A stretch of 64,000 bases of DNA from an uncultured Gammaproteobacteria bacterium. GTDB lineage: Bacteria > Patescibacteriota > Patescibacteriia > UBA9934. The notes beneath the pieces are model-generated. The model made no database searches, had not been told where the DNA came from, and was given only the letters and a program-made list of their open reading frames with translations. Position numbers and translations under genes: made by a program. The stretch is from the NCBI GenBank assembly GCA_964552565.1, contig CAZKGL010000001.1, positions 119,649 to 183,648 on the forward strand, given 5' to 3'. The first letter of the stretch is position 1. The number at the start of each line of letters is the position of its first letter. Positions 23,901-62,456 of the stretch are shown one piece after another.

Positions 23901-26900
23901 CGGTGCCCGCCGACGGCTGTGTCGTCGTCGACGGCGACGACTATACGTGGGACTGGTACGTCTACAGCGGCGTCGCAAACCTGACCAGCGACGACGAGTG
24001 CGCGGGCGGCACGACCGACTGCACGCTTGTTGAGGCGCTTGCGGAGGGCGAAGCGGATGTCATCGCGGAAGAAACCGCAAGCACGACGAGCGGCCAGGCA
24101 GACCTGACCGTGGCGTTTACCGATCCGTACGTCTCGGATTACTGGCCGGATTGCGACCAGGCGTGCAGCAACGGCGAGATCGGGGCGAGTTTCAATACTG
24201 CGGTCACGAGCACTTCGCTCGAAACCGACGGCCGCGTCGAACTGTACGAATGCGACAACGAGCTCTGCGCGGTCGGTCCGGCGGACGAGTACGGGTCGTA
24301 TGACGTGGTCGCGACCGATTGCGACGACGATGACCCGTCGTTGTGCGCGGGGGTGGCGATTTCACCCGATGCGGAGCTGACCCCGGGGACGTATTACCGC
24401 GCCGTCATCAGCCGTCGCGTGGAAACCCCGAGCGGCGTTTCGTTGACGCGCACAAACTACGATACCGGCTTCTCGTGGGTGTTCCGGGTGATGGAGGGCG
24501 ACGCGACGTGCGCCGTCGAACGCATTGAAGTGACGCCGGTCGACGCGGTTGCGGACGCCATCGGCGACCGCCAGACCTTCACGGTCGACGCGTACGGCAC
24601 GCCGGACGCGTGTTCCGTCGCGGGCCAGCTCTTGTCCGCATCGGACTACGACTGGTCGTACGGCGCATGGTCCGACGACGGGAGCGACGCGGCAGTCGAT
24701 GTCGCGGATTGGTGGGATGTCGGGTCTTCGAGCGGTTTTGTCGACACAAGCATCGAAGACGTCCCGGAGGGCTGCACGGCCTCGTGTATCCCGTCCGGCA
24801 GCACGGCGCTCGACGCCGTGTGCGGCGATGGAACCGTGGACAGCGACGCGGGAGAAGAGTGCGAAGACGGGAACACCGCGGACGACGACGGGTGTTCGTC
24901 GAGCTGTCTGTATGAAGGGTCGGAGACGACCTGCGGCGACGATGTCGTCGATACGTACGAGGAGTGCGACGACGGCGGAATCGCGGACGGCGACGGATGC
25001 TCCTCCGTCTGTCTGAACGAGGGGTCCCGCGCGATCGGCACGACGTGCGGCAATGATGACGTCGCATACGAAGCGGACCAGGGCGGCGAGGATTGCGACG
25101 ATGGCAACGTCGTGAACGGCGACGGATGCTCCTCCGTCTGTCTGAACGAGGGGTCGCTGACCCTCACCGATGTTGGCGGCGCCGTGTGCGGCGACCTCGA
25201 TATTACCGAGCCGTACGAAACCTGCGATGACGGCGGCACGACGGACGGCGACGGCTGCTCGTCCAACTGCACCCGCGAAGGCGCGGACGGCAGCTACGGG
25301 ACCTGCGGCAACGACAGCACGGAGCAGGGGACGTACGGCGAAGGCGAGGATTGCGACGGCGAAGAATGGTGCACGGATTCCTGCACGTACGGCGGATCGT
25401 CCGTCACGTACTCCGAGCCCTCGTTCTGCGGCGACGGCACGGCCGGCCTCGGCGAAGTGACCGCCTGCGAATCGTCGGGCGGCGACGACAACACCGACTC
25501 GCTCCAGCTTGCGTACATTACCGACGACGCTGCACAGGAGGTCGATACGGACACGAACGTCGCGATTGCAACCGTCACGGTGACTGAGCCCGAGTCCGGC
25601 CTTTCGACGGACGTGACGTACACGCTGGCGTGTTCCGCCGCGACCGACACGGACTGCTCGGATCCGGAAACGTATGGCGTCGGCCTCGGGAACTGCTGCA
25701 TTGCGCGCCCGACCGCGACCCTGTACCCGAACGGCACGGATGCCTGCCGCAACGCGGCGATCTACGGCATCTTCACCCAGGAGATGGACCTCGGCTCGTT
25801 CAGCGTCACCGACACGGACGGCGACACGACGCCGCGGATGTACCTCGTGCTCGACACCTCGACGACCGACGACGGCGCGTGTCCGTACGACGACGAGCTC
25901 GCATGGCTCGGCGAGGACTCTTGGATTGCGGAGACATGGCTGCGCATCCGCCGCATCGTGACCGGCCACGCCGCGGAAGCGGCGCCGGGCGAGGACGAGT
26001 GCGTCCTGCCGGTGTCGAGTTACGCCCAGGAAGCGCAGGACGACGGGACGTTCAAGGTGCGGATGCGCTACGGCGAGGCGCTCGAGGCGGACGTGACCTA
26101 CACGCTGCGCATTGAGGTCGACAGCGACAACACGGACACGAGCAAGGACGGCGTGCTGTCCGCGGACAATGTCGCCATGTACGACGCCGACGGCGTGATT
26201 GAAGAAACATTCTCGACCGGCAGCGAAATCTGCACGCTCGACAGCGTTGTTGTGGAAGATACGGACGACGAGAGCCCGTATTACTTCTCGCAGTACGGCG
26301 AGGAGCATACCTTTACGGCAACCGCGTACTCGTACAACGGCTCGACCCGCCAAGAGCTCGAATCCATCGACGATGTCTACTCGTGGACGTGGTCGAGCTG
26401 GGAGGAGGAGGCGAGCGAGTCGGTCGTGGATGTCGCGCAGAGCACGACCACGGGCACTGAGGACGAAGCGGCGGTCGAGGCGACCGGCGAAAACGGCGAG
26501 GCGGTCATCGTCGCGACCGCTACCATTGAGGACGACGTGGTCGGCGACAGCGAGGGCGAGGAGGTGACCGGCTCGGAGGATGTCGTGGTCTACCTTTGCC
26601 AGAATACGTGGCCGGACATTACGGCGACCGAATTCCCTTGGAGCGACGACGAGGACGGTATTGATAACGGCGCGGAAGAGGGGAACGGCTGGATGAACTT
26701 CTCGACGTACTTCTGCCGCGACAGCGGGGAAGCGGACGACACAAGCGACGACCTGCCAGGCGTCAACGTCGTGTATGCAACGGATTACTCGAGCGCCGAC
26801 GACATCCTGAAGGAGTATCTCTTCGAGGTCGACGACGGCAGCGGGGACGCGATCGGCTTCCGTATCGTGTCGAATTCCGAGTACTTGGGCCCGGAACAGT

Positions 26901-29900
26901 GGTTTGAGGCCCAGGGCTTCTCGGGTTCGCCGCAGACGACCACCATCGACGGCTTCCAGGCGGTCACCGATGGCCGCACGACGTACGTCGCGGCGCCGAA
27001 CCAGTCGGACACCTCGCTGTACTCGAATATCTACGTCATTTCGTACAACGAAGGGGCGAGCGAGGAAACGACCGACCTGTACGACCAGATCCTCGAAAAC
27101 ATCTCGTTCGCCATCAACGTCGACAACGACTGCGACGCGGAGGACGGCGAAACCTGTACGGACGCATGGAGCACGCTCCAGCGCGACACGAAGCGCCTTG
27201 CGGACCTCACGACGGTCGCCGCGCTCGTTGAGACCTATGTCGACGAGAACGGCGTCGTGCCGCCGCTGTCGTCCGGTACGTACGTCCGGAGCATGGGGTC
27301 AAGCGTCTGGGATTCGTGGGGCGACCTGCTCGGCGCGGCGCTCGGCGACTCCGATCTGCCGACCGACCCGCGCAACACCTATGACGGCTGCGGCGCGGAT
27401 CCGTTCGCGTCCTACGACGAGGATACGTGCGTGAACGAAACCGCCGGCCAGTACCTCTGTCCGGAAGGGTCGTACGCCTACCATTACCGCGCGGTCGGCA
27501 CCGACGGGGTCACGCTGTATGCGGACCTCGAGTATGACGATGCGGCATGGGTGAACCCGATCGACGCCGATACGTCGGACGACATCGACTACGAGGTGTA
27601 CAGCGCCATGAGTTCCGGCGACGGCTTTACGTCGACCGCGTTCTGCGACGGCTCCTCGAGCGGCGGCACCGTGTACGGCTCGACCGGTTCGTGCGGCGAC
27701 GGCGTCGTGAACACGAGCATCGACAGCGACGGCGACGGCACGGCGGACACGGTGGAGACGTGCGAGATCGGCGAGTCGGGCGGTACTGCCGAATGGTGCG
27801 ACAGCGACCTTGCGAGCGACGGCGACGGGGACGGCGATCCGCTCAACGATTGGGACGGCTCGGTGAGCCAGACCTGCAACAGCGCCTGTACCGGCTGGAC
27901 CGACGACAGCGACGCCGAGTGCGTCCTGTGGTCATGCGGCGACGGCGTCGTGGACACCACCGACGGCGAGGAATGCGACGACGGCGCGCTGAACGGGCAG
28001 TACGGCTATTGCAGCAACACCTGCTCGTACGACGACGCGTTCTATTGCGGCGACGGGTCGCTTGCGGGCAGCGAAACCTGCGACTGCGGAGCGCCGGGCG
28101 AGAGCACGATCGTCGACCCGACGCAGTCGCGCCCCTACGGCGGCACGAGCTATAGCTGCGTGACGACCGAAGGTAACGGCACCTACGACGAAAATCCGTA
28201 CAACACCTGCGCATGGGATTGCCAGGGCCCGGCGTCGTACTGCGGCGACGGCGTCGTCGACAGCGGCGAAGAGTGCGACGGCGACACCGAGCACTGGGAA
28301 GGCAAGCTCTGCAATCTGTACTCCACTGCGGATACGTTCGGCCAGGCGTGCGAGACGGACGCGGATTGCGAGCGGTACTCGGATGCATCGCTGCCGAACG
28401 CCTTGTGCGGCGACGCGAGCAACGACGACTTCGAGGCGTGTCCGGAAACGACGGTCTGCGTCGCGGGCACCACAAGCCTCATCGGCACGGAGTGTACGGC
28501 CGACAGCGACTGCGGGACCGACGGCGCCTGCTCGGACATCGCCTACCAGACCTACCGCACCCGGACGTGCGAGGACGACGGTGCGAGTGGGGAAACGTGC
28601 GACTGGGACGTCCCGTCCCTCGGCCTCTACGGCATCTCGTGCACGGCACTCGGGAGCTGCGGCGACGGCACGGTGGACGACAATGAGGAGTGCGACGACG
28701 GCAATGACGATTCGACCGACTCGTGCACGAACGAGTGCACGGACAATGTCTGTGGCGACGGGTACCTCTACGTCGGCGAAGAGCAGTGCGACGAAGGGAC
28801 GGAAAATGGACAGGGCTGCAGTTCGAGCTACGAATCGACCTGCACATCCTGTTCGGAGACGTGCCGGTACGAAACGTCGTCCGGCGACTTCTGCGGCGAT
28901 GGCGAGATCAACGGCGACGAGTACTGCGACGCCTACGCCATGCCGTACCAGTATGCGATCAGCGTGACGTACGATGAGGCCGAATCTGAAGACGACTTCA
29001 ATCCGTTCGCCGGCGAGACGGTCGTGTGGACGTATGGCGACTCCTGTGACACGCTCGGTGAGACCGTTATCGATTATGCGGACGAGTCGGACGAGTCGGA
29101 TGTCACCTACACCTGTTCCATGATTGGGTACTGTAACGGCGGCGACAGCAGCTACGGCGGCAACGGCGACGAGTGCTTGACCGACTCGGACTGCGATGAA
29201 GGCGACTGCGTCATGACCGTCTGCGCGGATGATTGCGACAACACGTGCCCGGAGACATACGAGTCCACCGCGCTCCTCCTCACCGCGGAGCAGCCGGGCG
29301 CGACCGCAGAGACTGCGGTCGACCTGTACACGTACTCCGACAGCGGGGAAGCGGAGGTGCCGAACTCGGCGACGATCACGTTCCCTGCCTGTACCATCGC
29401 GTCTTCGCTCGTTGCGGACATCTCGATGGACAACGTGGAACTGACCGAGTACTACATCGTCTTCGTGACCGACACGTCGGGATCTATGGATGACAGCTTC
29501 GATGGTTCCCAGACGTCCGGCGTCCCCGTCGACGAGCAGCGTATTACCGCCGCGGTCGACGTGCTCCGTGAGGCGATCCAGAGCCTGTACGATGCAAGCG
29601 AAAACATGCATATCGCGCTCGTGCAGTATGACGACACTGCGTACGAGGAAACGTCCGGCGACGGCGGGCCGACGGCATTCACGGACGCCGACCAGGAATC
29701 CAACCTTCTGTCCACCATCAACAGTTACTACGTTGCGGGCGGCACGACAGAGACCGACGACGGCCTTGCCATGGCGAAGGCGCTCCTCGACAGCGAGGCG
29801 TCGGACCGCACCTCGAACGTCCGGAAAATCATCGTCCTCCTCTCGGATGGGGAAGAAAATAGCACGTCCGATGCGGGAAGCGTGGCGGACGAGATCAAGG

Positions 29901-30316
29901 CCGTCGACCTCGACGAGGACGGCGTGGACGATTACGAGCTCTACACCGTCGCGCTGACGAGCGTCGACACGCTCATTACGACCATGAACGGCTGGTCGAG
30001 CAATAGCGGGAGCGCGCTCGCATCGAACAACATCGACTACGCCTACGACGGCGACACGGAAGATGAGCTTGAAGACTCCTACGAGGACATCGTCGCGTCC
30101 ATCGCGCAGCCGACCATCGCCATCATCTCGTCCGACGGCTCGACGACCTATACGACGACCGACGAGTTTGAAGAGGGTTCCGGGGTCGACTTCCCGTGGC
30201 CGGAAGGGTTCTCGTGCGACCAGGACGACGAACAGGAGCTGCCGATCCGTATTACGTTCCCGGGCGAAGGCACGATCGAAATCAGCAATGTCCGGTTCGA
30301 GTATTGCGCCCCCTAG
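20954..30316 (+). CDS. giant surface adhesin-like protein (3120 aa): T4SS-pilin-like N-terminus, 4 IPT/TIG domains, Cys-rich DUF4215-like repeats, C-terminal vWA domain
   Basis: N-terminus is paralogous to the previous gene (WVWMTAGGNAEKVEKAKKIL). IPT/TIG modules at about 22.2-23.4 kb (VSPGSGAVGTYVTVSGSGFG). CGDGxVDxxEECDDGNxxxGDGCSSxC repeats at about 24.8-25.5 kb and 27.7-28.9 kb. MIDAS DTSGSMDD vWA domain at about 29.45-30.0 kb. Confidence 0.75.
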   Translation: MSRFRLRHVLPFLAGLSLIGVLAFTPDLLAQSESLTEVGDASGLGSEDPRIIIANIIRTFLTVLGVLAVLIVLYGGWVWMTAGGNAEKVEKAKKILIRGGIGIAIILMSWAITTFVITALLDSTGGSGGSGDDSDGSGGGVLGGGSTTSFSVTDYSPEGAVSIRNVQLRVTFSKTLDDETVEGNIVVTNASSGEAVDGAITVSGNKATFVPSAACPSPNEDRSCFDADTEFTVTVSEAIESSSGTALTCGADDCTSSFTTGSLVDTEDPVAEITDPERGDGVEAGSVETIQVHATDDTEVSGADFSLDEEEFDSVGAEGDDLSDVTIESTWDTTELTVGQDYEISVTVTDIAGNTDGVSVDVTARGAWCFNDEIDEEYGETGLNCGGDSSSAEYCGACDGSSCTEDSECSSGSCVDGVCTTLPEIESVSPGSGAVGTYVTVSGSGFGTSTGTVAFTSEDGTTTVEADIPSCSDGWSDTEIVVEVPEGAGDGPITVTTDDDLSDATDDDAGALIDDFDVNDTERPKLCSLFPDEGESTDGTTLSGLDFGDEQGSSTVSFGTSAAGSYTSWEDTSASVTVPALEDGEYDVVVTVDGVESNAVTYTVEEDTTGDPVITGIDPSEGAVGDYITISGENFGILVGTVRLVDDAGNEAVAEVDFPEECAEDYWEPTEITVIVPEEYQSGDGLSAGAFDVYVVTQEGAESDTTSFTVEDGDPSPGICAIDPDVGLAGTSVTIYGERLGSDEGSVAFYDEDGDVAATVDEDGWSSDAISLTVPSGAETGPVTVTSSAGDESNSIDFEVSDAGAAETETEPASYGWYFSTGEIPETPELLVECSDDRISGVPNNRFTSDGVCVEAMVYGEFSTVMNEGSITDALTVEMCTAAGEQPCDTTTDVTGDGTLEVSSSTTSTTFSWSPSSTFTADTTYRVTVSTAAMSDEAQALDDDVSWEFTTASSSETCEVDTVHVVPSAATITEQYATEQFTAVPADGCVVVDGDDYTWDWYVYSGVANLTSDDECAGGTTDCTLVEALAEGEADVIAEETASTTSGQADLTVAFTDPYVSDYWPDCDQACSNGEIGASFNTAVTSTSLETDGRVELYECDNELCAVGPADEYGSYDVVATDCDDDDPSLCAGVAISPDAELTPGTYYRAVISRRVETPSGVSLTRTNYDTGFSWVFRVMEGDATCAVERIEVTPVDAVADAIGDRQTFTVDAYGTPDACSVAGQLLSASDYDWSYGAWSDDGSDAAVDVADWWDVGSSSGFVDTSIEDVPEGCTASCIPSGSTALDAVCGDGTVDSDAGEECEDGNTADDDGCSSSCLYEGSETTCGDDVVDTYEECDDGGIADGDGCSSVCLNEGSRAIGTTCGNDDVAYEADQGGEDCDDGNVVNGDGCSSVCLNEGSLTLTDVGGAVCGDLDITEPYETCDDGGTTDGDGCSSNCTREGADGSYGTCGNDSTEQGTYGEGEDCDGEEWCTDSCTYGGSSVTYSEPSFCGDGTAGLGEVTACESSGGDDNTDSLQLAYITDDAAQEVDTDTNVAIATVTVTEPESGLSTDVTYTLACSAATDTDCSDPETYGVGLGNCCIARPTATLYPNGTDACRNAAIYGIFTQEMDLGSFSVTDTDGDTTPRMYLVLDTSTTDDGACPYDDELAWLGEDSWIAETWLRIRRIVTGHAAEAAPGEDECVLPVSSYAQEAQDDGTFKVRMRYGEALEADVTYTLRIEVDSDNTDTSKDGVLSADNVAMYDADGVIEETFSTGSEICTLDSVVVEDTDDESPYYFSQYGEEHTFTATAYSYNGSTRQELESIDDVYSWTWSSWEEEASESVVDVAQSTTTGTEDEAAVEATGENGEAVIVATATIEDDVVGDSEGEEVTGSEDVVVYLCQNTWPDITATEFPWSDDEDGIDNGAEEGNGWMNFSTYFCRDSGEADDTSDDLPGVNVVYATDYSSADDILKEYLFEVDDGSGDAIGFRIVSNSEYLGPEQWFEAQGFSGSPQTTTIDGFQAVTDGRTTYVAAPNQSDTSLYSNIYVISYNEGASEETTDLYDQILENISFAINVDNDCDAEDGETCTDAWSTLQRDTKRLADLTTVAALVETYVDENGVVPPLSSGTYVRSMGSSVWDSWGDLLGAALGDSDLPTDPRNTYDGCGADPFASYDEDTCVNETAGQYLCPEGSYAYHYRAVGTDGVTLYADLEYDDAAWVNPIDADTSDDIDYEVYSAMSSGDGFTSTAFCDGSSSGGTVYGSTGSCGDGVVNTSIDSDGDGTADTVETCEIGESGGTAEWCDSDLASDGDGDGDPLNDWDGSVSQTCNSACTGWTDDSDAECVLWSCGDGVVDTTDGEECDDGALNGQYGYCSNTCSYDDAFYCGDGSLAGSETCDCGAPGESTIVDPTQSRPYGGTSYSCVTTEGNGTYDENPYNTCAWDCQGPASYCGDGVVDSGEECDGDTEHWEGKLCNLYSTADTFGQACETDADCERYSDASLPNALCGDASNDDFEACPETTVCVAGTTSLIGTECTADSDCGTDGACSDIAYQTYRTRTCEDDGASGETCDWDVPSLGLYGISCTALGSCGDGTVDDNEECDDGNDDSTDSCTNECTDNVCGDGYLYVGEEQCDEGTENGQGCSSSYESTCTSCSETCRYETSSGDFCGDGEINGDEYCDAYAMPYQYAISVTYDEAESEDDFNPFAGETVVWTYGDSCDTLGETVIDYADESDESDVTYTCSMIGYCNGGDSSYGGNGDECLTDSDCDEGDCVMTVCADDCDNTCPETYESTALLLTAEQPGATAETAVDLYTYSDSGEAEVPNSATITFPACTIASSLVADISMDNVELTEYYIVFVTDTSGSMDDSFDGSQTSGVPVDEQRITAAVDVLREAIQSLYDASENMHIALVQYDDTAYEETSGDGGPTAFTDADQESNLLSTINSYYVAGGTTETDDGLAMAKALLDSEASDRTSNVRKIIVLLSDGEENSTSDAGSVADEIKAVDLDEDGVDDYELYTVALTSVDTLITTMNGWSSNSGSALASNNIDYAYDGDTEDELEDSYEDIVASIAQPTIAIISSDGSTTYTTTDEFEEGSGVDFPWPEGFSCDQDDEQELPIRITFPGEGTIEISNVRFEYCAP

Positions 30317-43531: not shown

Positions 43532-43575
43532 GGCCGTGAATTACGGATGATGAATATTTCCTCGTTGGTGGACCT

Positions 43576-43959
43576 GAAGGGAGTTGAACCCTTGTCTGGT
43601 CGGAGATGCCCTGTCGATGGTTTCCAAGCTCAGTAGCGCTTGGTGTGCGCGCTATCCCTTAAAGCGTTACGAAAAAGGATAGACCGCGTTCCCGTCCAAC
43701 AGGTCGCATCATGAGACGGGAATCATGATGCCGAGCATGCGGTTATAACACCCGTTGTCCACCTGCATACTCGATGGGACGGATGGGCGCACGGCGCTTA
43801 GGCGGTGGCCAGAGCGAGCGACGGCATGCGGAACGCAGCCTTCACGCGCTGAGAGAAGCTGTTGGCATTTCTCGGTTGCATCGTGTGATGACGAAGGACG
43901 ATGCACCTCCGGCTTGATCGGGCAGGGAACCGATTCCGCCATCGAAGCCTGGCAGGCCC
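43576..43959 (-). ncRNA. ssrA: tmRNA (ssrA)
   Basis: 5' GGGCCUG pairs with 3' CAGGUCC-A-CCA, including the G3·U wobble. T-arm GGGUUCAACUCCC and PK1 GGUGCAUCG are present. It sits 12 nt downstream of smpB. Candidate tag ORF GCC AAC ... TAA encodes ANSFSQRVKAAFRMPSLALATA. Confidence 0.8.
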
Positions 43960-43971
43960 CTCGACGGAGAA

Positions 43972-44415
43972 CTATTCCTTAAGCCGTTGTCGGATCTCGC
44001 GCTCGATGTCGCGCTTCTTGATGACCTCACGTTTTTCGTGCTGCCGTTTTCCTCGCGCAAGCGCAAACCCAAGCTTGACAAGATCGCCTGTAGTGTAGAC
44101 AGAAACCGGCACAATCGTCAACCGTTCGGCCTCATGTTTTCCGCGAATGGCATTGATTTCTTTCTTATGGACGAGGACGGTGCGGTCGCGGGTCGGGTGG
44201 TACTTCTCCGGAGATCCTGACGGCGCATAATGACCGATGTGCATGCCGCGGATGACGAGCTCGCCGCCGACGATGTCGAGGTACGACCCCTTGAGGTTGA
44301 CGTGACCCGCTTTTGCCGCCTTCACTTCGGCCCCCGTCAACGCCAAACCGCCCTCGAACCGATCGAGGAGTTCATAGTCATGGAGCGCACGCGCGTTTTT
44401 TGCGAGCTCGGGCAT
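43972..44415 (-). CDS. smpB: SsrA-binding protein SmpB
   Basis: MPELAKNARALHDYELLDRFEGGLALTGAEVKA... Only the 3' 444 nt of the long track ORF is real. Confidence 0.9.
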   Translation of the reverse strand: MPELAKNARALHDYELLDRFEGGLALTGAEVKAAKAGHVNLKGSYLDIVGGELVIRGMHIGHYAPSGSPEKYHPTRDRTVLVHKKEINAIRGKHEAERLTIVPVSVYTTGDLVKLGFALARGKRQHEKREVIKKRDIEREIRQRLKE

Positions 44416-44436
44416 GCATGGTACACTAGCAGCAAT

Positions 44437-45504
44437 ATGGCAGCGCGAAAAGAGGAGGAGCGGCACGGTTCGGTCATCACGATTTCGACCGGGACGATCT
44501 TCCGTTCCTTGCTCATCCTGCTTGCGGCGTATCTCCTGTATGTCATCCGCGACGTCGTCGCGCTGTTTCTTGTTGCGGTGTTCATCGCGGTCATCATCGA
44601 CCCGTTTGCCGGACGCCTCCAGCGCATGGGCCTGCCGCGCGGGCTTTCTGTGGCCATCATCTACCTCATGTTGCTCGCCGTCCTCGCCGGCCTCCTGACG
44701 CTTGTCGTGCCGCCGATGGTGTCGGAGTTCAGCCAGCTTGCAACGACGTTTGCGCCGCTCCTCGAAGACACGCGGTTCGCCGGCATCAAGTCGCTCATCG
44801 AAACCGGCGCGTCCCCCGAGGGGCTCGGCGCGATTGCCGCGAGCATCCAGGAATCCGGCCTGCTCGGCGCGCTGCCGCAGCTCGGCGGCGTCGCGCTCGG
44901 CGCGCTCGGCGGCGTCCTCGGGTTTTTCCTCATCCTCATCCTCGCGTTTTACCTTGTCACGGAAGAGAACGTCATCCGCCGCGGCATCGCGCTCCTCGCG
45001 CCAGACGAATACCAGCCGTTCGTCTCGCAGCTCTCCGTGAAGATGCGCGAGAAGGTCGGGCATTGGCTCCGCGGCCAGCTCCTTATTATGCTCATCGTCG
45101 GCCTGCTCGACTACGGGGCACTCGTCATGCTCGGCATCCCGTACGCCATCGTGCTCGCGATTGTTGCCGCGCTGTGCGAGGTCGTCCCGTTCATCGGCCC
45201 GAACGTCGCGGTCATCCCGGCCGCGGTCATCGCGTTTTCCGTCTCGCCCGTGCACGCCGTGCTCGTCCTTGCGGCCTACTTTGTCGTCCAGCAGATTGAG
45301 AGTAACATCCTGACGCCGAAGATCATGCAGCGGACGACCGGTCTCAACCCCATCATTACGATCCTCGCCATCCTTATCGGGTTCGAGATCGGCAATACGC
45401 AGGGCGTCCAGGGCGGCGTCATCGGCGCGTTACTCGCCATCCCGCTTGCCATGACCGCATCGGTCTTCTTTAACGAAGTATTCCGCGAACGCGCGGAACG
45501 GTAG
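44437..45504 (+). CDS. AI-2E family transporter (PerM/UPF0118)
   Basis: About 8 TMs, 355 aa. The start is taken at the ATG at 44437 because the upstream part of the track ORF overlaps smpB on the opposite strand. Confidence 0.8.
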   Translation: MAARKEEERHGSVITISTGTIFRSLLILLAAYLLYVIRDVVALFLVAVFIAVIIDPFAGRLQRMGLPRGLSVAIIYLMLLAVLAGLLTLVVPPMVSEFSQLATTFAPLLEDTRFAGIKSLIETGASPEGLGAIAASIQESGLLGALPQLGGVALGALGGVLGFFLILILAFYLVTEENVIRRGIALLAPDEYQPFVSQLSVKMREKVGHWLRGQLLIMLIVGLLDYGALVMLGIPYAIVLAIVAALCEVVPFIGPNVAVIPAAVIAFSVSPVHAVLVLAAYFVVQQIESNILTPKIMQRTTGLNPIITILAILIGFEIGNTQGVQGGVIGALLAIPLAMTASVFFNEVFRERAER

Positions 45505-48444: not shown

Positions 48445-48630
48445 CTTGACGGCCATTTGGCCTTGTTGGTAAGCTTCGGCCTGCAAATCTCCTTCGGGGA
48501 CCCGGTGGAGCGGTCGTGATGCCTCCTCCTCATCGCGATTCGTGACCGTCGGGTCTCCCAAGGAGATTTTTTGTTTTCCAAAACTTGGCTAATATTTCAC
48601 GCATTTTTCCCAATAAACCCAGGCTCATCC

Positions 48631-48659
48631 TTGACAGAAGCACAACTTTTTGCTACATT
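48631..48659 (+). promoter_or_regulatory. strong sigma70-like promoter in an AT-richer 450-bp intergenic region
   Basis: TTGACA, a 17-nt spacer, then TACATT. The predicted leader is about 230 nt long before the ATG at 48898. Confidence 0.55.
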
Positions 48660-48897
48660 TCGCTGTTCTTTTAAAGCCCTCGTTAGGCCAATTTTCGGCA
48701 GACTGGGGTGTGCGAAGGGCACTCTTATGGCCTGGATGTCGCGGAGGTTCTCCTCCAACCGCCGCTGACGTCCGGCCCTATGGAGTGCCCTTTACCGGAG
48801 CCAATCCGGGCGAGGGCACACCTCGCGACACTCCAGCCCGGCCGCAAGGCCACAACTGTCCGAACCACGGCCACCGAGCCGTTCGAGAGGTGAACCG

Positions 48898-49980
48898 ATG
48901 TTGCTCCCCCTGTTCCTCCTCACCTTCGCCCATGCGGCGGAGGAAGAGGAGCCCGCGGAGGAGGTGACCTACACCCCCGCCGCGGTCGACCAGGCGCGCC
49001 AGGACGCGAAGCTCGACGAGGCGTACACCCGCCGCACCGGCGGGACCGTCGACATGAGCAAGATCCTCGCGGCCCAGAAGGCCGCGCAGGACGCCGCCAC
49101 CGCCGCGGAGGACGCCCGCCAGGGCGCCGTCACCGCGTCGACCAACGCGACCACCGCCGCCGAGTCGGCCAACTCCGCCGCGCAGCGCGCGGAGGACGCC
49201 GCCATCCGCGCCGAAGCCGCCGCCAACGCCCCCCGCAACGTCATCGTCAGCGACGACGAGGAGGAGGACGAGCGCGACGAGCCCGAGCCCGAGGACGACG
49301 ACGGCGAGGTCGAAGACCTCGACGCCGAGGAGCCCAAGGACGGCGACAAGGACGGCGTCCCCGACGCGAAGGACGAGTGCCTCCGCGCCAAGGAGGACGT
49401 CGACGGCGTGTCCGACAAGGACGGCTGCCCCGACGACGGACCCCGCTTCGGCGGCTTCGTCAGCGCGGGTCTCGGCCTCGACTTCCGCGGCGGCAACGTC
49501 GAGGACGCCGACGGCAACACCGTCGCCGGTCCGATGGACGTCCCCCTGCTGCTCTCGGGCGGCATCCTCTACGGGGAGCGCGGCACCGACGCGGCGCGCG
49601 GCAAGGGCTTCGGCCTGTCGCTGCGCGGCGGTGTCGTGCCCGGCGCCGCCGGCCACCTGGCCTACGCGGACGTCCTCTTCCTCTCGACCTCGGCGCGCGG
49701 CGGTGCGATGGGGATCGGGATCGGTGGCGGCATGACCGCCATCGGCTCCCTCGAGGGGACGGGCATGGAGGCCTACCAGGCCGGCGGCGAGCTCATGCTC
49801 CTGTCGCGCACCCCGGTCAGCCGCACCGACCAGCCGAACGTCACCGACCTCAACGTCGCGATGACGATCGGCCTGGCGCGGGCGGGGAACGAGGTGTCCG
49901 GCGTGTGGGTGGTGCCCTTCGGGGTGCAGCTCACGCTCGGCCGGCGCTGGCAGGGCATCGCGCTCGACCCCGAGGACTAG
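48898..49980 (+). CDS. secreted acidic protein with OmpA-linker-type TSP3 repeats and Gly-rich C-terminal domain
   Basis: Signal peptide. Ala/Glu-rich region, poly-acidic stretch, DKDGVPDAKDEC...DKDGCPDDG, then a ~170-aa Gly-rich domain. GAGGTG SD. Confidence 0.55.
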   Translation: MLLPLFLLTFAHAAEEEEPAEEVTYTPAAVDQARQDAKLDEAYTRRTGGTVDMSKILAAQKAAQDAATAAEDARQGAVTASTNATTAAESANSAAQRAEDAAIRAEAAANAPRNVIVSDDEEEDERDEPEPEDDDGEVEDLDAEEPKDGDKDGVPDAKDECLRAKEDVDGVSDKDGCPDDGPRFGGFVSAGLGLDFRGGNVEDADGNTVAGPMDVPLLLSGGILYGERGTDAARGKGFGLSLRGGVVPGAAGHLAYADVLFLSTSARGGAMGIGIGGGMTAIGSLEGTGMEAYQAGGELMLLSRTPVSRTDQPNVTDLNVAMTIGLARAGNEVSGVWVVPFGVQLTLGRRWQGIALDPED

Positions 49981-49982
49981 GG

Positions 49983-50166
49983 CCTCGACTCGGAGGGGAC
50001 CGACGGTACGCAGTACGCTGCGTCCGTCGGTCCCCCACCCGACAATCTGAAATCATGTTACGCAAGTGCCGAATGCTTCGACACTGCCGTAGCCTGGTTT
50101 CGCGAGTAAACAGGTGAACGTCCTTCGGGGCGTTGTGACTGCAACTCGCATCGGTCCCACAACAAC
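49983..50166 (+). repeat. duplicated ~180-nt terminator + leader element (copy 1)
   Basis: Near-identical to 50755..50936 over the first ~120 nt and about 75% identical over the last 60 nt. Begins with a long GC hairpin, GGGGACCGACGGTACGCAG..CTGCGTCCGTCGGTCCCC. Confidence 0.7.
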
Positions 50167-50221
50167 CTGTCACGTGACCGCTAACGTGACATCACCGGCC
50201 TTTGGCCAAAGGAGCATTCCC

Positions 50222-50746
50222 ATGCTCTTGCTGACCTCCGTCGCCTGCATGATGGGCGACTTCGACGACAACCGCGTGTCCGGCGCCGACAACGGCGTCG
50301 ACGTGTCCGAGTACCTCGCGGAGAACGGCCCCCAGGACATGACCGACCTCGGCTACCCCGGCATGGTGGGCTTCCCGACCCTCGGGGCCCGCTTCGACCT
50401 CGCGGGCGGCTGCTACGCCGGCGTGAACGCCGCGGGCACCGACGAGGACTGGGAGGCCAACAACGTGTGCATCGAGGACAGCTCGGTCACGATCGAGGAG
50501 ACGGGCACGCGCTACGGCCTGCAGGAGTTCGACCCCGGCAACGGGAGCTCGGGCTACTACCACGGCAACATGTACAACGCCGCGGACCCGACCTGCGGGC
50601 CGAGCGTGAAGACGTGGGACTGCTGGTACAACCTCGAGGACTTCGAGGGCCGCAACAAGCTCATCGACTGCGGCATCGACGACCAGGGCGACCTGGTGTG
50701 CGCGCTCGACTTCTACTCGACGTGGGACGGCATCTCGGTCGACTAG
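50222..50746 (+). CDS. hypothetical lipoprotein (Cys-rich, acidic)
   Basis: Lipobox LTSVAC. AAAGGAG SD. Confidence 0.5.
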   Translation: MLLLTSVACMMGDFDDNRVSGADNGVDVSEYLAENGPQDMTDLGYPGMVGFPTLGARFDLAGGCYAGVNAAGTDEDWEANNVCIEDSSVTIEETGTRYGLQEFDPGNGSSGYYHGNMYNAADPTCGPSVKTWDCWYNLEDFEGRNKLIDCGIDDQGDLVCALDFYSTWDGISVD

Positions 50747-50754
50747 AGGCGCAG

Positions 50755-50936
50755 CCTCGACTCGGAGGGGACCGACGGTACGCAGTACGCTGCGTCCGTC
50801 GGTCCCCCACCCGACAATCTGAAATCATGTTACGCAAGTGCCGAATGCTTCGACACTGCCGTAGCCTGGTTTCGTGAGTTACAGGTGAAGCATCCTTCGG
50901 GATGTTGGCTGAAACTCACATCGTTCCCACAACAAC
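50755..50936 (+). repeat. duplicated ~180-nt terminator + leader element (copy 2)
   Basis: See 49983..50166. Confidence 0.7.
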
Positions 50937-50990
50937 CGCCCCGCATCCTACGCGCGGCACAACCGGCCTCAGGCCAAGGAGGAGAAGGCC

Positions 50991-51941
50991 ATGCGCCTGA
51001 TCCCGATCACCACCATCCTCGCCGCCTGCATCTTCGAGCAGGCCGACGTCCAGCTCGACGACGAGAGCCCGGTCACGGAGACCCCGTGGTCGGCCTCGGA
51101 GGGCGAGGACGACGACGGCGCCGACGACGGCGACGGCGGCGAGGGCACGTCCAGCACCTGGTACTTCGACGGCGACGGCGACGGCTTCGGCCTCACCTCG
51201 TCGGCGGTCACCGGGTCCAAGCCCTCGGACAGCACGTCCTGGGTGACGATGGGCGGCGACTGCAACGACGCGAGCGCCTCCATCAACCCCGACGCCACCG
51301 AGATCGCCGGCAACACGGTCGACGAGGACTGCGACGGCATCCTCGACAACGAGGACGGCTCCACGAGCTACTCGTACTACGTCGACAGCGACGGCGACGG
51401 CTACGGCAGCACGACCACGGTCACGTCCGACTCGTCCACCCCGGCGTCCGGCCAGTCCACCCTCAACACGGACTGCGACGACACCGACTCCAGCGTCTAC
51501 CCGGGCGCCACGGAGACCACGGACGGCGAGGACGACGACTGCGACGGCAGCGTCGACGAGTCGAGCTCCGGCTCGAGCACGTCGACCTCGGTCGAGGTCT
51601 GCTACCAGCCGCTCTCCGGCTCGAGCACGTGGACGGGCTACGCCTGGACCAACAACCCGTGGAACCAGACCTACTGGTTCGCGTCGGCCTACGCCTCGGC
51701 GTCGGGGACCACGAAGTCGTGCGGCTCGGCCCTCGGCTACGTGTCCGGCGCCACCGTCGAGATCAACGGGCTCAACCCGGACGGCGACTACATGGTCGGC
51801 GCCTGCGACGGCAGCACCTACGCGGCGATGTCCTCGGACGGCACGAAGTGCATGTTCGCGTACATCTGGGTGAACGGGACGCTGCTCGGCAGCTCCCACT
51901 TCTCGTCGGACAGCTACGACGCGAAGTACACCCTCCCGTAG
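50991..51941 (+). CDS. lipoprotein with MopE-like putative metal-binding repeats
   Basis: Lipobox LAAC. Repeats of DGDGxG...CNDxDxxxxPxAxExxxxxxDEDCDG. Confidence 0.55.
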   Translation: MRLIPITTILAACIFEQADVQLDDESPVTETPWSASEGEDDDGADDGDGGEGTSSTWYFDGDGDGFGLTSSAVTGSKPSDSTSWVTMGGDCNDASASINPDATEIAGNTVDEDCDGILDNEDGSTSYSYYVDSDGDGYGSTTTVTSDSSTPASGQSTLNTDCDDTDSSVYPGATETTDGEDDDCDGSVDESSSGSSTSTSVEVCYQPLSGSSTWTGYAWTNNPWNQTYWFASAYASASGTTKSCGSALGYVSGATVEINGLNPDGDYMVGACDGSTYAAMSSDGTKCMFAYIWVNGTLLGSSHFSSDSYDAKYTLP

Positions 51942-51948
51942 GGTCCAC

Positions 51949-52075
51949 GGCGAGGGGGCGACGTGCAGCAATGCGCGCCGCCCCCGACCAACCCAACGTA
52001 ATAAGAAGAGAGATCCTATCAATGAGTGAACTGCTCCGAGCGTTCATTCATCCGTGGGATCTCTCTTTGTTTTCG
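51949..52075 (+). repeat. conserved ~125-nt 3' element (copy 1)
   Basis: Matches 56050..56170. Terminator GGGGGCGGCG..CGCCGCCCCC plus a long-range hairpin AGAGAGATCC...GGATCTCTCT. Confidence 0.65.
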
Positions 52076-52284
52076 TGGACAACTGTCCGCAAATGACAAC
52101 GTCGACGTGATTTTTCCTTTACATCCTCATCATTTTTTGTTATAGTGATGCGTCCGTTTTTGCTGCGCCCTGCGCGCAAATTCGTGGACTAGGCGAGGGA
52201 AATGCCCTACGCTGAACAAGCCACACCGACCTTTCCCATCCACCACCCCCCCCCAACCACCGGACACCGGATCCTGGAGGACCC

Positions 52285-54483
<2,199 letters not shown>

Positions 54484-54486
<3 letters not shown>

Positions 54487-54781: not shown

Positions 54782-56038
54782 ATGCGCTTCTTGCTCTTGA
54801 CCCTCAGCCTCGCCGCCTGCAACGGCGACGAGCTCGTCTCCGACAGCGGGGACACCGGCGAGCCGGCCGACACCGGTCTCACCGGCGACACCGGCACGAC
54901 GACCGAGGCCACCCCCCAGTGGTGCCTCGACGCCGACGGCGACGCGTACCCCAACCGCGCCGCCTGCGTCACGCCCAACCCGTCCAACTCCTCGTACGTC
55001 GAGGTCGCCGACGTCTCCACGTACACCACGTGGGACTGCGACGACAACAACGCCTCGGTCTCCCCGGGGCAGTCCGAGTCGGTCGGCAACGGCATCGACG
55101 ACGACTGCGACTACGTCATCGACGAGGACCCGGAGGTCACGCGCTACTACGACTACGACCTCGACGGGTACGGCGGGGAGATCGTCATGACGGCGCCGGA
55201 GAGCAGCTTCGACTCCTCGTGGGTCGAGAACTCCAGCGACTGTGATGACTTCGACGCCCAGGTCACGCTCGGCGAGACCTACGTCGTCGACAGCGACGGC
55301 GACGGGTACGGCGACGAGGACCTCTCGGACTACCAGGTCGCGTGCGAGCAGCCCGCGGGCTACGTCGACAACGCGGAGGACTGCAACGACAGCTCCGACG
55401 AGTGGTACCCCGGCGCGGCCGAGGACTGCTCGGTCGACGAGGACCGCGACTGCGACGGCATCTCGCCGTTCGTCGACGCGGACGGCGACTCGTTCGCCGC
55501 CTGCGAGGACTGCGACGACTTCGCCGCGTCCGTCAACCCGGACGCCGACGAGGTCTGCAACTCCATCGACGACGACTGCGACGAACGGGTCGACGACAAC
55601 GACTCCGACGTCGTGGACGCCACGACCTGGTACGACGACGACGACGCGGACGGCTTCGGCGACCCGGACGACACCGTCGAGCGCTGCGAGGCGCCGGAGT
55701 CCACCGTCGGCAACGACGAGGACTGCGACGACTCCGACGCCGAGGTGAGCCCCGACGCCCGCGAGGTCTGCGACCGCGTCGACAACGACTGCGACTCGCG
55801 CACCGACGACGCGGACTCCGACGTGGAGGACCAGGTGACCTGGTACCTCGACCTCGACGGCGACTCGTACGGCTCCGACTCGTACACGCAGGACGCGTGC
55901 TACGAGCCGACGGCCACCTACGGGGAGTACGTCGAGGACGGCGGGGACTGCGACGAGGGCGACGACGACGTGAACCCGGATGCGTCCGAGGTCTCGGGCA
56001 ACACCGAGGACGAGGACTGCGACGGCACGGCGGAGTAG
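54782..56038 (+). CDS. lipoprotein with MopE-like putative metal-binding repeats
   Basis: Lipobox LSLAAC. AAAGGAGG SD. Repeated CDDxDAxVxPG..E..DGxDDDCD modules. Confidence 0.6.
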   Translation: MRFLLLTLSLAACNGDELVSDSGDTGEPADTGLTGDTGTTTEATPQWCLDADGDAYPNRAACVTPNPSNSSYVEVADVSTYTTWDCDDNNASVSPGQSESVGNGIDDDCDYVIDEDPEVTRYYDYDLDGYGGEIVMTAPESSFDSSWVENSSDCDDFDAQVTLGETYVVDSDGDGYGDEDLSDYQVACEQPAGYVDNAEDCNDSSDEWYPGAAEDCSVDEDRDCDGISPFVDADGDSFAACEDCDDFAASVNPDADEVCNSIDDDCDERVDDNDSDVVDATTWYDDDDADGFGDPDDTVERCEAPESTVGNDEDCDDSDAEVSPDAREVCDRVDNDCDSRTDDADSDVEDQVTWYLDLDGDSYGSDSYTQDACYEPTATYGEYVEDGGDCDEGDDDVNPDASEVSGNTEDEDCDGTAE

Positions 56039-60311: not shown

Positions 60312-60626
60312 TTATGCGTCGTTGGTTTTCGGCTGCTCCTTCTCCTTGAGCACGTCGGGGTTTGGCGAGTACAAGGTGTTCTTGATGCGCCACTGTTCGA
60401 CGAACTGCCCGATCCCTTTTTTGTCCCGCTTGTTTCGGACCGTGGTCGAGGACTGGGACCACTTGAGGAGGGACTCGAAGTTAATTTTGTACCGGCCCTG
60501 GACCACGATGTAGCTCACTTCCTTCTCTGCGATCGCGCGGCGGACGGTGCGCGGGCTTACGCCGAACATCCGTGCGGCTTCCGAAACCGTGAGCCGGATG
60601 ACGTGGTCGAGCGGGGAATTCTCCAT
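60312..60626 (-). CDS. helix-turn-helix DNA-binding protein (excisionase/HTH_17-like)
   Basis: LTVSEAARMFGVSPRTVRRAIAEKEV HTH. Region is noticeably lower in GC. The start is taken at the ATG of MENSPL. Confidence 0.6.
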   Translation of the reverse strand: MENSPLDHVIRLTVSEAARMFGVSPRTVRRAIAEKEVSYIVVQGRYKINFESLLKWSQSSTTVRNKRDKKGIGQFVEQWRIKNTLYSPNPDVLKEKEQPKTNDA

Positions 60627-60771: not shown

Positions 60772-61293
60772 ATGCAACGCGCCAAACAACAATTCCTCGC
60801 CTTCCGGGTATTTCGCTTTCGGGACGCCGACGCGTACCAAACGCTCTACCGGGAATATGTCGAGCCCATCGAGCGGCAGCTTTCGCTGAAACTTCCCCGC
60901 CGGGAAGACGTCGATGAGCTGACGAGCGAAGTGTTCCTTCGCGGGTGGGAATACATGACGGCAAACCGCGTCGAGCACCCCCAAGCATTCTTTTTCCGGA
61001 TCGCGGGCAACCTCGTGGCGGAGTTCTACCGGAAGGCCAAGCCGACCGAGGAACTCGACGAAGCCTCCGCGGTGCCGGCGGCGGGGTCGCTGGCAGAAGA
61101 TGTCGCGAGTAGCGATGCCCTCCAGCAGTTGCTTGAGAAGGTCAGCCGGCTCAAAGACGAGTACCAGGCGGTCATCCGCCTCAAGTACATCGAAGAGCGT
61201 TCGATCGAAGAGATCGCGCGCGAGCTCGGCAAGAGTGCGACAAACGTCCGCGTGCTCCTCTATCGCGCAAAACGCGCATTCCAAAAATTGTGA
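60772..61293 (+). CDS. RNA polymerase sigma-70 factor, ECF subfamily
   Basis: Region 2 (FFFRIAGNLVAEFYRK) and region 4 HTH (SIEEIARELGKSATNVRVLLYRAKRAF). Confidence 0.85.
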   Translation: MQRAKQQFLAFRVFRFRDADAYQTLYREYVEPIERQLSLKLPRREDVDELTSEVFLRGWEYMTANRVEHPQAFFFRIAGNLVAEFYRKAKPTEELDEASAVPAAGSLAEDVASSDALQQLLEKVSRLKDEYQAVIRLKYIEERSIEEIARELGKSATNVRVLLYRAKRAFQKL

Positions 61294-62456
61294 ACCGTTC
61301 CGCCGAAGAACAATTGCAGTCGCTCGCCGCGCTCAAGAACGACCCTCGCTTTGCCGCGAGGACGGTTGCGTTTCGCGAGGCGCAGGAGGCGGAACTCATG
61401 GTTGCGATCGGCGGGCGCCAGACCGCGGCGACGTACGGGTGGCGCGACTACGTTTCCTATATTCGTGAGGTGAAGTTCCCGGCGGTCGGGCGATCATTCA
61501 GCGCCGCCGCGGCCGCAGTGGTCGTCATGCTCGGCGGGTGGATCACGACGGTCGACGCCGCCGCCGACAGCCTCCCGGGCGATCCGCTCTACGGCTTCAA
61601 GCTTGTGACCGAACAGGTCCAGCTCCGGCTCGCCTCGCTCGAGCGCCGCGCCGTCCTCCATACCGAGTTTGCGGAACGCCGCCTCGAAGAGGTCGTCGCC
61701 CTCCAGCAATCGGGCGCCGCAAAGGACGAAAACGTGAAGGTCGCGGTGAATGCCTTTACCCGGGAGATCGCGTCGGCCAACCAAGACCTGCAAGCGCTCA
61801 TCCAGAGCGGAAGCCAGGAAGCGCTGGCCGCGGCGACCGAGGTTCAAGGGAAACTGAGCGGGTTCGATGCGGCGCTTGACGAAACGGTCGCGGCCGCGGC
61901 GAGTATAGAGGTTTCGACCGAGGTCCAGGGCGCAAAGGACGCCGCGCGCGAAACCCAATCGACGGCAGTTTCCGTCGTGGTCGATACGCACGAGGAACAG
62001 GGCGACGAATATTCCCAGCGCGAACTCCAGGACATGTTCCAAGGCGAGCTCGGCGACCTGCGCGGACGGCAGACGTTCGACCTCCACCGCATCGAGGTCG
62101 TGGAAGCATCGCTCGTCATGCATGCCGGACGGCTCGAGGGCGTCGCGGTCCCGACCGCGGACGACTTCACCTCCCTCCGTTACGCGGTCACGTCGGCGGA
62201 CGACGGCATCTCTGAGGCGATGAACCTCTTCGCAATCGGCGGCTACCGCGCCGCGTTCGAAAAGCTGCGCAGCGTCGACGGCGAGCTCCTCGCAGTCGAA
62301 GCGCGCCTCGCGCAAACCGAGATCGCCATCGTCACTGCGCTGAACGCGCCGACGCCGGAACCGGTTGATGCATCGGAAGAAACGGATGACGAAGCCGATA
62401 CCCCGACAGAGGAACCCCCACTTTCACCAGAAACGGCGACAAACGAGACCGAGTAG
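61290..62456 (+). CDS. putative anti-sigma factor (single-TM, DUF5667-like extracytoplasmic domain)
   Basis: ATGA overlap with the sigma gene. About 85-aa cytoplasmic region, TM (AAAAAVVVMLGGWITTV), and a PGDPLYGFKL motif. Confidence 0.5.
   Translation: MNRSAEEQLQSLAALKNDPRFAARTVAFREAQEAELMVAIGGRQTAATYGWRDYVSYIREVKFPAVGRSFSAAAAAVVVMLGGWITTVDAAADSLPGDPLYGFKLVTEQVQLRLASLERRAVLHTEFAERRLEEVVALQQSGAAKDENVKVAVNAFTREIASANQDLQALIQSGSQEALAAATEVQGKLSGFDAALDETVAAAASIEVSTEVQGAKDAARETQSTAVSVVVDTHEEQGDEYSQRELQDMFQGELGDLRGRQTFDLHRIEVVEASLVMHAGRLEGVAVPTADDFTSLRYAVTSADDGISEAMNLFAIGGYRAAFEKLRSVDGELLAVEARLAQTEIAIVTALNAPTPEPVDASEETDDEADTPTEEPPLSPETATNETE

Follow-up and report, generated by a model that had tools for sequence, protein, structure and literature searches.

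A duplicated chain of covarying hairpins ahead of two lipoprotein genes: a candidate cis-acting RNA element in an uncultivated bacterial lineage

We analysed a stretch of 64,000 nucleotides (nt) from contig CAZKGL010000001.1 of an uncultured bacterium, called here the window, in which three consecutive genes, A, B and C, are separated by two intergenic regions (IGRs) that carry copies of the same element. Gene A encodes a secreted protein, and genes B and C encode lipoproteins. The element is a chain of hairpins (HP) that runs from HP1 through a G-poor linker to HP2, HP3, a CA-rich tract, a copy-specific hairpin, HP4 and the Shine-Dalgarno (SD) sequence of the following gene. It is a structured RNA that matches no catalogued family. 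Related lineages were represented by the Logan contigs L001, L005, L006 (=L007), L008 (=L009=L010) and L011; L008, L009 and L010 are from groundwater metagenomes, and L010 and L011 from metagenomes of the Joint Genome Institute (JGI). The features of the locus are the following (aa, amino acids; bp, base pairs).

48631-48659, +, sigma-70-type promoter upstream of gene A, TTGACA-17-TACATT with TG, from a promoter scan
48898-49980, +, gene A, secreted protein of 360 aa, its acidic repeats TSP3-like and its C-terminal half rich in Gly; orthologues syntenic in L001, L006, L008 and L011
49991-50042, +, HP1 copy 1, GC-rich hairpin of 18-21 bp, 11 nt past the stop codon, without a T tract
50049-50101, +, HP2 copy 1, conserved imperfect 53-nt hairpin with TGAAAT-N16-CGAAT within its 5' arm
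50102-50149, +, HP3 copy 1; outer stem 50102-50107/50144-50149, inner hairpin ACGUCC-UUCG-GGGCGU at 50118-50133, conserved GGUGAA in the 5' internal loop
50156-50167, +, CA-rich tract CCCACAACAACC, copy 1
50168-50191, +, copy-specific 8-bp hairpin, from folding; its position is conserved, its sequence is not
50197-50214, +, HP4 (GGCC-UUU-GGCC, 50197-50207) and the SD of gene B (AGGAG, 50210-50214)
50222-50746, +, gene B, 174 aa, of a family of small Cys-rich lipoproteins
50763-50814, +, HP1 copy 2, identical to copy 1
50821-50873, +, HP2 copy 2, identical to copy 1
50874-50919, +, HP3 copy 2; outer stem GUGAGU/ACUCAC, inner hairpin GCAUCC-UUCG-GGAUGU at 50890-50905
50926-50937, +, CA-rich tract CCCACAACAACC, copy 2
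50938-50958, +, copy-specific hairpin GCCCCGC-AUCCUAC-GCGCGGC, from folding
50965-50984, +, HP4 (GGCC-UCA-GGCC, 50965-50975) and the SD of gene C, AAGGAGGAG
50991-51941, +, gene C, lipoprotein with MopE-type Cys/Asp motifs
51954-51985, +, HP1-like GC hairpin past gene C, without a T tract and with no HP2 or HP3 behind it
52006-52076, +, conserved nested hairpin followed by UUUGUUUU, putative terminator of A-B-C, conserved in L006, L008 and L011

A preliminary description of this locus, made from the sequence alone, had proposed that the two lipoprotein genes share a duplicated leader, and the duplication proved to be real and not a product of chance. The two copies, of about 190 nt each, lie at 49982-50170 and 50754-50940; a repeat search aligned 49982-50135 with 50754-50907 at 92% identity, and a 28-mer of the duplicated block has 2 exact occurrences in the window against 0 expected. 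The block of perfect identity, given before as 70 nt, is indeed identical but longer, since pairwise alignment extends the exact run to 121 nt (49982-50102 = 50754-50874). Beyond it, some 70 nt remain at about 80% identity, and then only short islands are shared. The conserved block that had been noticed upstream of the SD corresponds to the CA-rich tract, which both copies contain. The window sequence is matched by independent Logan assemblies from the same organism, so the duplication is not an assembly artefact; their contigs end precisely at the repeat boundaries, L003 terminating at ...GGTTTCG and L004 beginning within the identical block. When the entire IGRs were folded and compared with dinucleotide shuffles, the z-scores were -8.1 and -6.6.

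The comparison of the two copies of HP3 already reveals conservation of the fold. Four of its 16 pairs differ between copy 1 and copy 2 and none is broken: an outer C-G becomes U-A, an inner G-C becomes A-U, two more pairs change through G.U, and the insertions and deletions are confined to loops. The inner stem, of 6-7 bp capped by C(UUCG)G, is the hairpin for which compensatory changes had been described, and these were verified (ACGUCC/GGGCGU versus GCAUCC/GGAUGU). The 6-bp outer stem covaries too (GCGAGU/ACUCGC versus GUGAGU/ACUCAC), a second helix that had been overlooked. It should be noted that the inner hairpin is missing in L005 and that its loop is UUCG in the window only, being GCAA in L001, so that it is not the UUCG loop as such that is conserved.

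To find relatives we relied on the proteins as well as on the RNA. A word-based protein search with gene B returned only gene B itself and P0002, whose 1.9-kb Logan contig (L001) carries a diverged element between the orthologues of genes A and B and, past gene B, the beginning of a second copy. When a profile of gene B was searched exhaustively with HMMER, only five clusters emerged among 1.84 billion representatives. Altogether, five further lineages with the A-B-C order were recovered, and in each of them the element is present in both the A-B and the B-C IGR, on the gene strand. The gene order shared with the window comprises L20-L35-IF3, SmpB, AI-2E, a PDZ protease, a Wzz-like protein, A, B, C, MopE-motif proteins, Wzy and glycosyltransferases. 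The covariance-model search that had been suggested for the leader was run for HP2 with the filters off on the 64-kb window and about 55 kb of related loci (10-64 kb per locus), and it found exactly two copies per locus and none elsewhere. Thus, more homologues with a conserved, covarying fold exist in five more lineages, always before the same two lipoprotein genes, and the proposal of a cis-acting leader under selection for RNA structure gains from them. The distribution is narrow, with six lineages that probably form one uncultivated groundwater clade.

Other searches returned little. Blastn of the IGRs against plasmids and phages gave no match; a protein search with gene A found only itself and TSP3/OmpA fragments, and one with the C-terminal domain of gene C gave no match. 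Among 4227 Rfam models, only transfer-messenger RNA (tmRNA) and two tRNAs reached their gathering thresholds in the window. Nothing credible appeared at E<=10 in 49900-51050 and L001, nor at E<=1 in L008 8400-12400, and the suggestion of a known riboswitch is not borne out, since no Rfam family matches even at the permissive threshold. An AlphaFold2 (AF2) model of the gene B protein is beta-rich (predicted local distance difference test, pLDDT, 73; predicted template modelling score, pTM, 0.72) and has no significant fold match in the PDB. The lipoprotein signal of gene B in the window has only 9 residues (MLLLTSVAC) and no charged n-region (start region 50222-50250). All the orthologues have full lipoprotein signal peptides, and the position of the SD favours the short start in the window.

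An imperfect intergenic palindrome located just past stop codons, at which assemblies break, might also be a dispersed repeat, similar to repetitive extragenic palindromes (REPs), bacterial interspersed mosaic elements (BIMEs) or miniature inverted-repeat transposable elements, that landed here twice by chance. We regard this as very improbable. Exactly two copies occupy orthologous positions in the same orientation in six diverged lineages, with none elsewhere in the sequence covered, and neither terminal inverted repeats nor target duplications are present. Moreover, scans with 20-22-mers (exact or degenerate) from the HP2 of the window and of L001 gave 0 matches in genome, metagenome and viral contigs, the patterns being too specific for the window clade, and nothing was found in the plasmid and phage collections.

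The most conserved part of the element is HP2, for which we built an alignment (A6) of ten sequences from six lineages over a 23-pair hairpin. In it, 85.7% of the cells are paired, compared with 29-38% after a shift of the partners by 1-3 columns. Both sides are altered in seven pairs; the double-change cells number 17 against 5.5 in shuffles (0/500 reached) and the covariation score is 0.224 against 0.097 (0/500), counts which include shared ancestry and gene conversion because eight of the ten copies are paired within genomes. The apical helix is CGAA/UUCG in the window, CGUUC/GAACG in L001 and CGUUU/AAACG in the rest. Even within one genome the pairing is kept, as in L011, where the A-B copy has CUAGG...CCUAG and its own B-C copy, like the other group-II copies, CUACA...UGUAG. 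Invariant sequence is concentrated in HP2 (AA.U, UA, GCCG, CGAC, UAGCC, GGUU), including many paired positions, one C.A mismatch (C24/A39) and one U.G pair (U8/G55). The group-II core reads TCAACTCTGTCTACACAAACGCCGTTTnnCTAAACGACyTTTCTGTAGCCATGGTT.

The remaining hairpins follow the same pattern. After HP2 comes a mini-hairpin, HP2b, with GGUUC/GAACC or, in L011, GGUUU/AAACC; in group II, HP2b and the inner HP3 are 100% paired, with one double change and three single changes mediated by G.U. A GGYGAA-type motif after HP2 (GGCUAG in L008) and a CAACAAC-type tract are further conserved in the other lineages. HP4 switches between GCCC/GGGC and GGCC/GGCC, and GSCC/GGSC stems occur in all lineages. 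HP1, whose core in the window is 49995-50035 (18-21 bp, about -43 kcal/mol), follows each of the genes A, B and C in every lineage, and its differences are compensatory. It is directly followed in the window by CACCCGACAAUC, and C/A-rich, G-poor linkers occupy this position in all lineages.

The leader is far better conserved than the proteins that follow it. Between lineages, identity is 22-56% for gene B and 36% for gene A (window versus L001), whereas nine of the ten copies of the leader module are 53-81% identical at the nucleotide level; the L005 copy, which is shorter, reaches 44-48% versus the window clade. The contrast is strongest between L006 and L008, with 78-81% for the leader and 23% for gene B. 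At the same time, the two copies of one genome are always the most similar pair (83, 91, 96 and 87%), and in L008 their identity extends through the start codon to +15. The duplication is therefore older than the split of these lineages, and gene conversion keeps the leader uniform. The HP1 hairpins of L006 and L008 are alike orthologously, the A-B copies sharing 84%, and unlike their B-C partners (57%); in the window, the conversion tract takes in HP1.

In the preliminary description, the arrangement TGAAAT-N16-CGAAT was read as resembling promoters of extracytoplasmic function (ECF) sigma factors. In such a model HP1 would terminate the upstream gene, an ECF-type promoter AA[A/C]T-N16/17-CG[A/T][A/T] would drive each lipoprotein gene, and the rest would be 5' untranslated region (UTR). 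The arrangement exists, and there are reasons to consider the idea: 7 of the 10 copies have GAAC or CAAC-17 nt-CGTTT and resemble AAC...CGT promoters, and group II, with CAAC-N17-CGTTT, comes closer to an ECF promoter than the window does; AA.T and GCCG are invariant; a very strong HP1 hairpin stands past each stop codon; and an ECF-type sigma gene with a DUF5667 partner lies at 60772-62456. However, the boxes lie inside the HP2 5' arm and are the 5' strands of two HP2 helices. The variable '-35' base (C/A, column 7) covaries with column 56, 49 nt downstream (CG in 7 copies, AU in 3), and the '-10' (CGAAT, CGTTC or CGTTT) is the 5' strand of the apical helix P4, with its complement a few bases downstream in all copies. 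The 3' arm, part of the transcript under this model, shows as much conservation as the 5' arm. L001 has GAAAT...CGTTC, and the two window copies, with GAAAT...CGAAT, lack both AAC and CGT. The only occurrences of GAAAT-N15-18-CGAAT in the window are those in the two element copies, and the region ahead of the ECF sigma gene (60772) lacks the motif. Since compensatory changes are predicted by the hairpin model and none by the promoter model, the reading of the boxes as an ECF promoter, and of the genes as an ECF regulon, is not supported, and we consider it unlikely.

Concerning the sigma locus itself, 60772-61293 encodes an ECF-type sigma factor with regions 2 and 4, followed by the DUF5667 protein. 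Its frame is open upstream to a GTG at 60547, the likely start is the ATG at 60772, and a sigma-70-like TTGCAT-17-CACTAT is located just upstream. Promoters of the form TTGACA/TTTACA-17-TAnnnT with an extended -10 TG occupy AT-rich intergenic islands in this genome of 63% GC, and several of them precede long 5' UTRs of 120-240 nt.

The label of terminator, which had been given to the GC hairpin HP1, was not sustained either, although the hairpin itself is there. No copy of HP1 has a T tract, and a terminator scan that detects the T-tract terminators at 48551, 54569 and 60285 of the window did not report it. Past gene C, an HP1-like hairpin without a T tract is followed by the conserved 62-nt nested hairpin and UUUGUUUU in each of the four lineages whose sequence covers it (window, L006, L008 and L011). 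As HP1 has no T tract, gene C has a separate terminator and T-tract terminators are used elsewhere, HP1 is probably not the terminator, which also counts against the ECF promoter model. This terminator hairpin lies at 52006-52076 in the window, at about 10200-10270 in L006, 12060-12140 in L008 and 12065-12135 in L011. Its inner hairpin (GAGUrAC...GCUCCGAGC...) is conserved in sequence and exceeds the complexity that a terminator needs.

With respect to the transcription unit, the promoter of gene A, TTGACA-17-TACATT with an extended -10 TG, is found at 48631 in the window, 8529 in L008 and 8635 in L011, and similar promoters stand ahead of downstream genes of the window at 52118 (52118-52146), 54627 and 59076. 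Consensus scans of the window, L008 and L011 detected no sigma-70 promoter or T-tract terminator in the IGRs that hold the element. The simplest reading is that A-B-C would form a single transcript from the promoter at 48631 to the terminator at 52006-52076, as far as scans that recognise only sigma-70 promoters and T-tract terminators can tell. The 5' UTR of gene A (48660-48897) has 238 nt and is structured as strongly as the element (z = -6.1). In L006 the gene A 5' UTR (6790-6881) opens with GAAAACTCTGTCTAG, and the 11-mer AACTCTGTCTA is common to it and the HP2 5' arm; a truncated sequence related to the leader may thus be present ahead of gene A.

The element is duplicated, its hairpins are conserved and covary, its position and orientation are fixed in six lineages, and it contains no recognisable internal promoter or terminator. 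For such an element we favour, with about even confidence, a role as intercistronic mRNA of an A-B-C operon that provides segmental processing or stability together with matched translation of genes B and C. Co-transcription, cleavage and the effects on stability and translation are what we infer from this arrangement. Transcription would start at the conserved sigma-70 promoter at 48631 and end at the T-tract terminator at 52006-52076. HP1, without terminating efficiently, would cap the upstream cistron at its 3' end, where it could block 3' exonucleases or else serve as a leaky site of pausing or termination, and HP2, HP2b/HP3, HP4, the unstructured CA-rich tract and the SD would make up the leader module of the next cistron. 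Cleavage of the transcript would take place in the single-stranded, G-poor linker that separates HP1 from HP2, or inside HP2 itself. Such cutting would yield segments protected by hairpins at both ends, and the downstream cistron would gain a protected 5' end; the CA-rich tract could be an unstructured landing site for ribosomes. Through the shared and homogenised leader, genes B and C would have equal stability and a common initiation region and, with them, a matched output. The overall scheme would be that of selective RNA processing and stabilisation (SRPS). As expected for SRPS, HP1 stands 3' of the upstream cistron in all lineages as a stable stem-loop with compensatory changes and plus-strand G.U pairs. 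For the cip-cel cellulosome operon of Clostridium cellulolyticum, an SRPS operon, 3' stem-loops that set stoichiometry have been described (PMC4423207), and PMC8219983 and PMC5927463 are related work.

Several points weigh against this proposal. Co-transcription is deduced from consensus scans limited to sigma-70 promoters and T-tract terminators, and HP1 could be a partial terminator. The alignment covers six lineages and ten copies, eight of them paired within genomes, with the consequence for the covariation counts mentioned before. The conservation of HP2 is above what a merely protective hairpin would need, and it points to a specific partner, be it a nuclease, a protein, an RNA or a ligand. 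Finally, 8 of the 10 copies of HP2 are 7-10 kcal/mol more stable when folded as the minus strand, where the invariant C.A mismatch of the gene strand turns into G.U.

This last observation leads to the possibility that HP2 acts on the other strand or as DNA, that is, as an antisense RNA hairpin or as a single-stranded or cruciform site for a recombinase or nuclease, the repeats permitting deletion, duplication or conversion of gene B. Besides the stability on the minus strand, the minus-strand apical hairpin plus GUUUGUGU was flagged as terminator-like in L008 and L011, and identical direct repeats of 121-165 nt flank gene B, with gene conversion evident. Nevertheless, no minus-strand promoter or gene was found at the window, L008 and L011 loci. 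The invariant U.G of the gene strand turns into A.C on the minus strand, and the neighbouring hairpins demand the plus strand: HP1 favours it across lineages (summed minimum free energy -408 versus -360 kcal/mol) and the inner HP3 requires it owing to its G.U pairs. The order A-B-C is stable in all six lineages, and no integrase, transposase or REP-associated tyrosine transposase (RAYT) is present among the annotated neighbours. An integron attC site needs R'' (RYYYAAC) at the 5' side and R' (GTTRRRY) at the 3' side; only GTTACGC (5') and an imperfect complement of it occur, and their order is wrong on either strand. Taken together, we consider an action of HP2 on the other strand or as DNA to be improbable. 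The C.A mismatch is tentatively treated here as a conserved feature of the mRNA hairpin.

The conservation of HP2 also fits a responsive cis-regulatory leader, in which HP2 would be a specific binding site, riboswitch-like or an operator for an RNA-binding protein, whose occupancy would alter the translation of genes B and C or their fate with respect to Rho or elongation. It would act by mutually exclusive pairings, of HP2 P1 versus HP2b, which share GGUU, and of the invariant CGCCG of HP2 versus the downstream GGYG of GGYGAA. We regard this explanation as the main rival, though clearly less probable than the processing scheme. The invariant pairs of HP2, its C.A mismatch and its U.G are typical of recognition sites; the leader is far more conserved than the proteins behind it; both copies are held alike in each genome; and one leader before two genes suggests coordinate control. 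On the one hand, the alternative pairings are possible, as read from the sequence, in 10 of 10 copies; on the other hand, they show almost no covariation, and the switch partners are not universal, HP2b being degenerate in window copy 2 and the inner HP3 missing in L005. There is no Rfam match. The element is a row of simple hairpins, without a multi-helix junction or a conserved loop-rich pocket, and it has no conserved helix that sequesters the SD, no terminator/antiterminator pair and no visible expression platform.

In its most specific form, HP2 would be the recognition site of one partner (a metabolite, or a dedicated RNA-binding regulator or endonuclease) in competition with HP2b/GGYGAA, and the element would represent a new class of responsive 'operon punctuation' RNA, a possibility that we entertain with similar caution. 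If it were true, the output of fast-evolving surface lipoproteins would be coordinated by an RNA whose copies are kept identical by gene conversion because both answer to one partner.

Other candidates were considered and rejected. A leader peptide or small open reading frame (ORF) was discarded because the ATG frames of HP2 differ between lineages and the ATG at the group-II position is absent in the window, L001 and L005; an N-terminal extension of gene B from the GTG at 50114, because the corresponding GTG of copy 2 is not in frame. Rfam gives no support for hammerhead, twister and other ribozymes or for a GEMM-like tandem hairpin. A K-turn in the internal loop of HP3 is contradicted by the presence of GUGA/GUGA in copy 1 only, and a template/variable repeat of a diversity-generating retroelement by differences that are not adenine-specific. 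An integron gene cassette does not agree with the conserved gene order, and the neighbours include no integrase. A sigma-70 or sigma-54 promoter within the element finds no acceptable hexamers and no GG-N10-GC. Pairings of loops with the SD or the leader (GAAUGC with GCAUUC in copy 1) are not conserved in copy 2 or in other lineages.

The neighbourhood contains further repetitive surface-protein genes. MopE-motif proteins are encoded at 52285-54486 and 54782-56038, and a 3120-aa ORF at 20954-30316 is packed with Cys-rich CGDG...ECDDG repeats. In the relatives, the gene C terminator and the next MopE-motif gene are separated by an additional gene of about 580-700 aa that has a promoter-like site of its own (L008 11961-14321); this gene is absent from the window (51942-52284). 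The tmRNA gene adjoins an SmpB ORF that is open for 427 codons (43566-43959 and 43972-45255); as SmpB is annotated with 151-152 aa in the relatives, this length is probably an open-frame artefact.

The element is of interest as a candidate new cis-acting RNA motif, having no Rfam family, clear covariation and a fixed position in six lineages, and also because its conservation is far above that of the rapidly diverging surface proteins behind it. It also displays concerted evolution of a non-coding, presumably regulatory module within a putative operon, and it offers a concrete opportunity to test whether RNA encodes the control of cistron stoichiometry in an organism for which metagenomes are the only source. 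A practical lesson is to examine promoter-like boxes located in palindromes for covariation before proposing a regulon.

The comparison with known systems helps to place the element. ECF promoters of the sigmaW/sigmaE type have AAC-N16/17-CGT. The element shares with them AA[A/C]T and CG[A/T] boxes about 16-17 nt apart upstream of envelope-protein genes, with an ECF-type sigma 10 kb away, but its boxes are covarying helix strands, the window version lacks the cores and the sigma gene has no autoregulatory copy. REPs exist in tens to hundreds of dispersed copies associated with RAYT transposases. As in REPs and BIMEs, imperfect palindromes that may stabilise upstream mRNA lie here just past stop codons, but they are restricted to two orthologous sites. 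With the leaders and riboswitches of Rfam the element has in common a covarying structure before the SD, better conserved than the coding sequence, and the use of one leader for more than one gene; it differs in being a chain of independent hairpins and not a junction-organised aptamer, with no expression platform visible. The intercistronic hairpins of the Rhodobacter puf operon, the REP of malE-malF and the RNase III signals of the phage T7 early transcript are cleavage sites and/or 3' protectors, which give segments unequal or defined stability. They resemble the element as repeated irregular hairpins with internal loops between the cistrons of a polycistronic RNA, putative in the present case; however, they are single hairpins, whereas the element maintains four to five of them in a fixed series together with the ribosome-binding region. 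The likeness to SRPS operons lies in stem-loops at the 3' ends of cistrons of one transcription unit, which is putative here, in IGRs of extracellular or surface-protein genes that would set relative expression, and in the lack of recognisable internal promoters and terminators. The difference is that a conserved multi-hairpin 5' leader, duplicated and homogenised, accompanies the 3' stem-loop here and is absent from the descriptions of SRPS. By analogy, the element seems to resemble intercistronic stabiliser or processing hairpins in the way it would work, and a conserved cis-regulatory leader in the way it looks.

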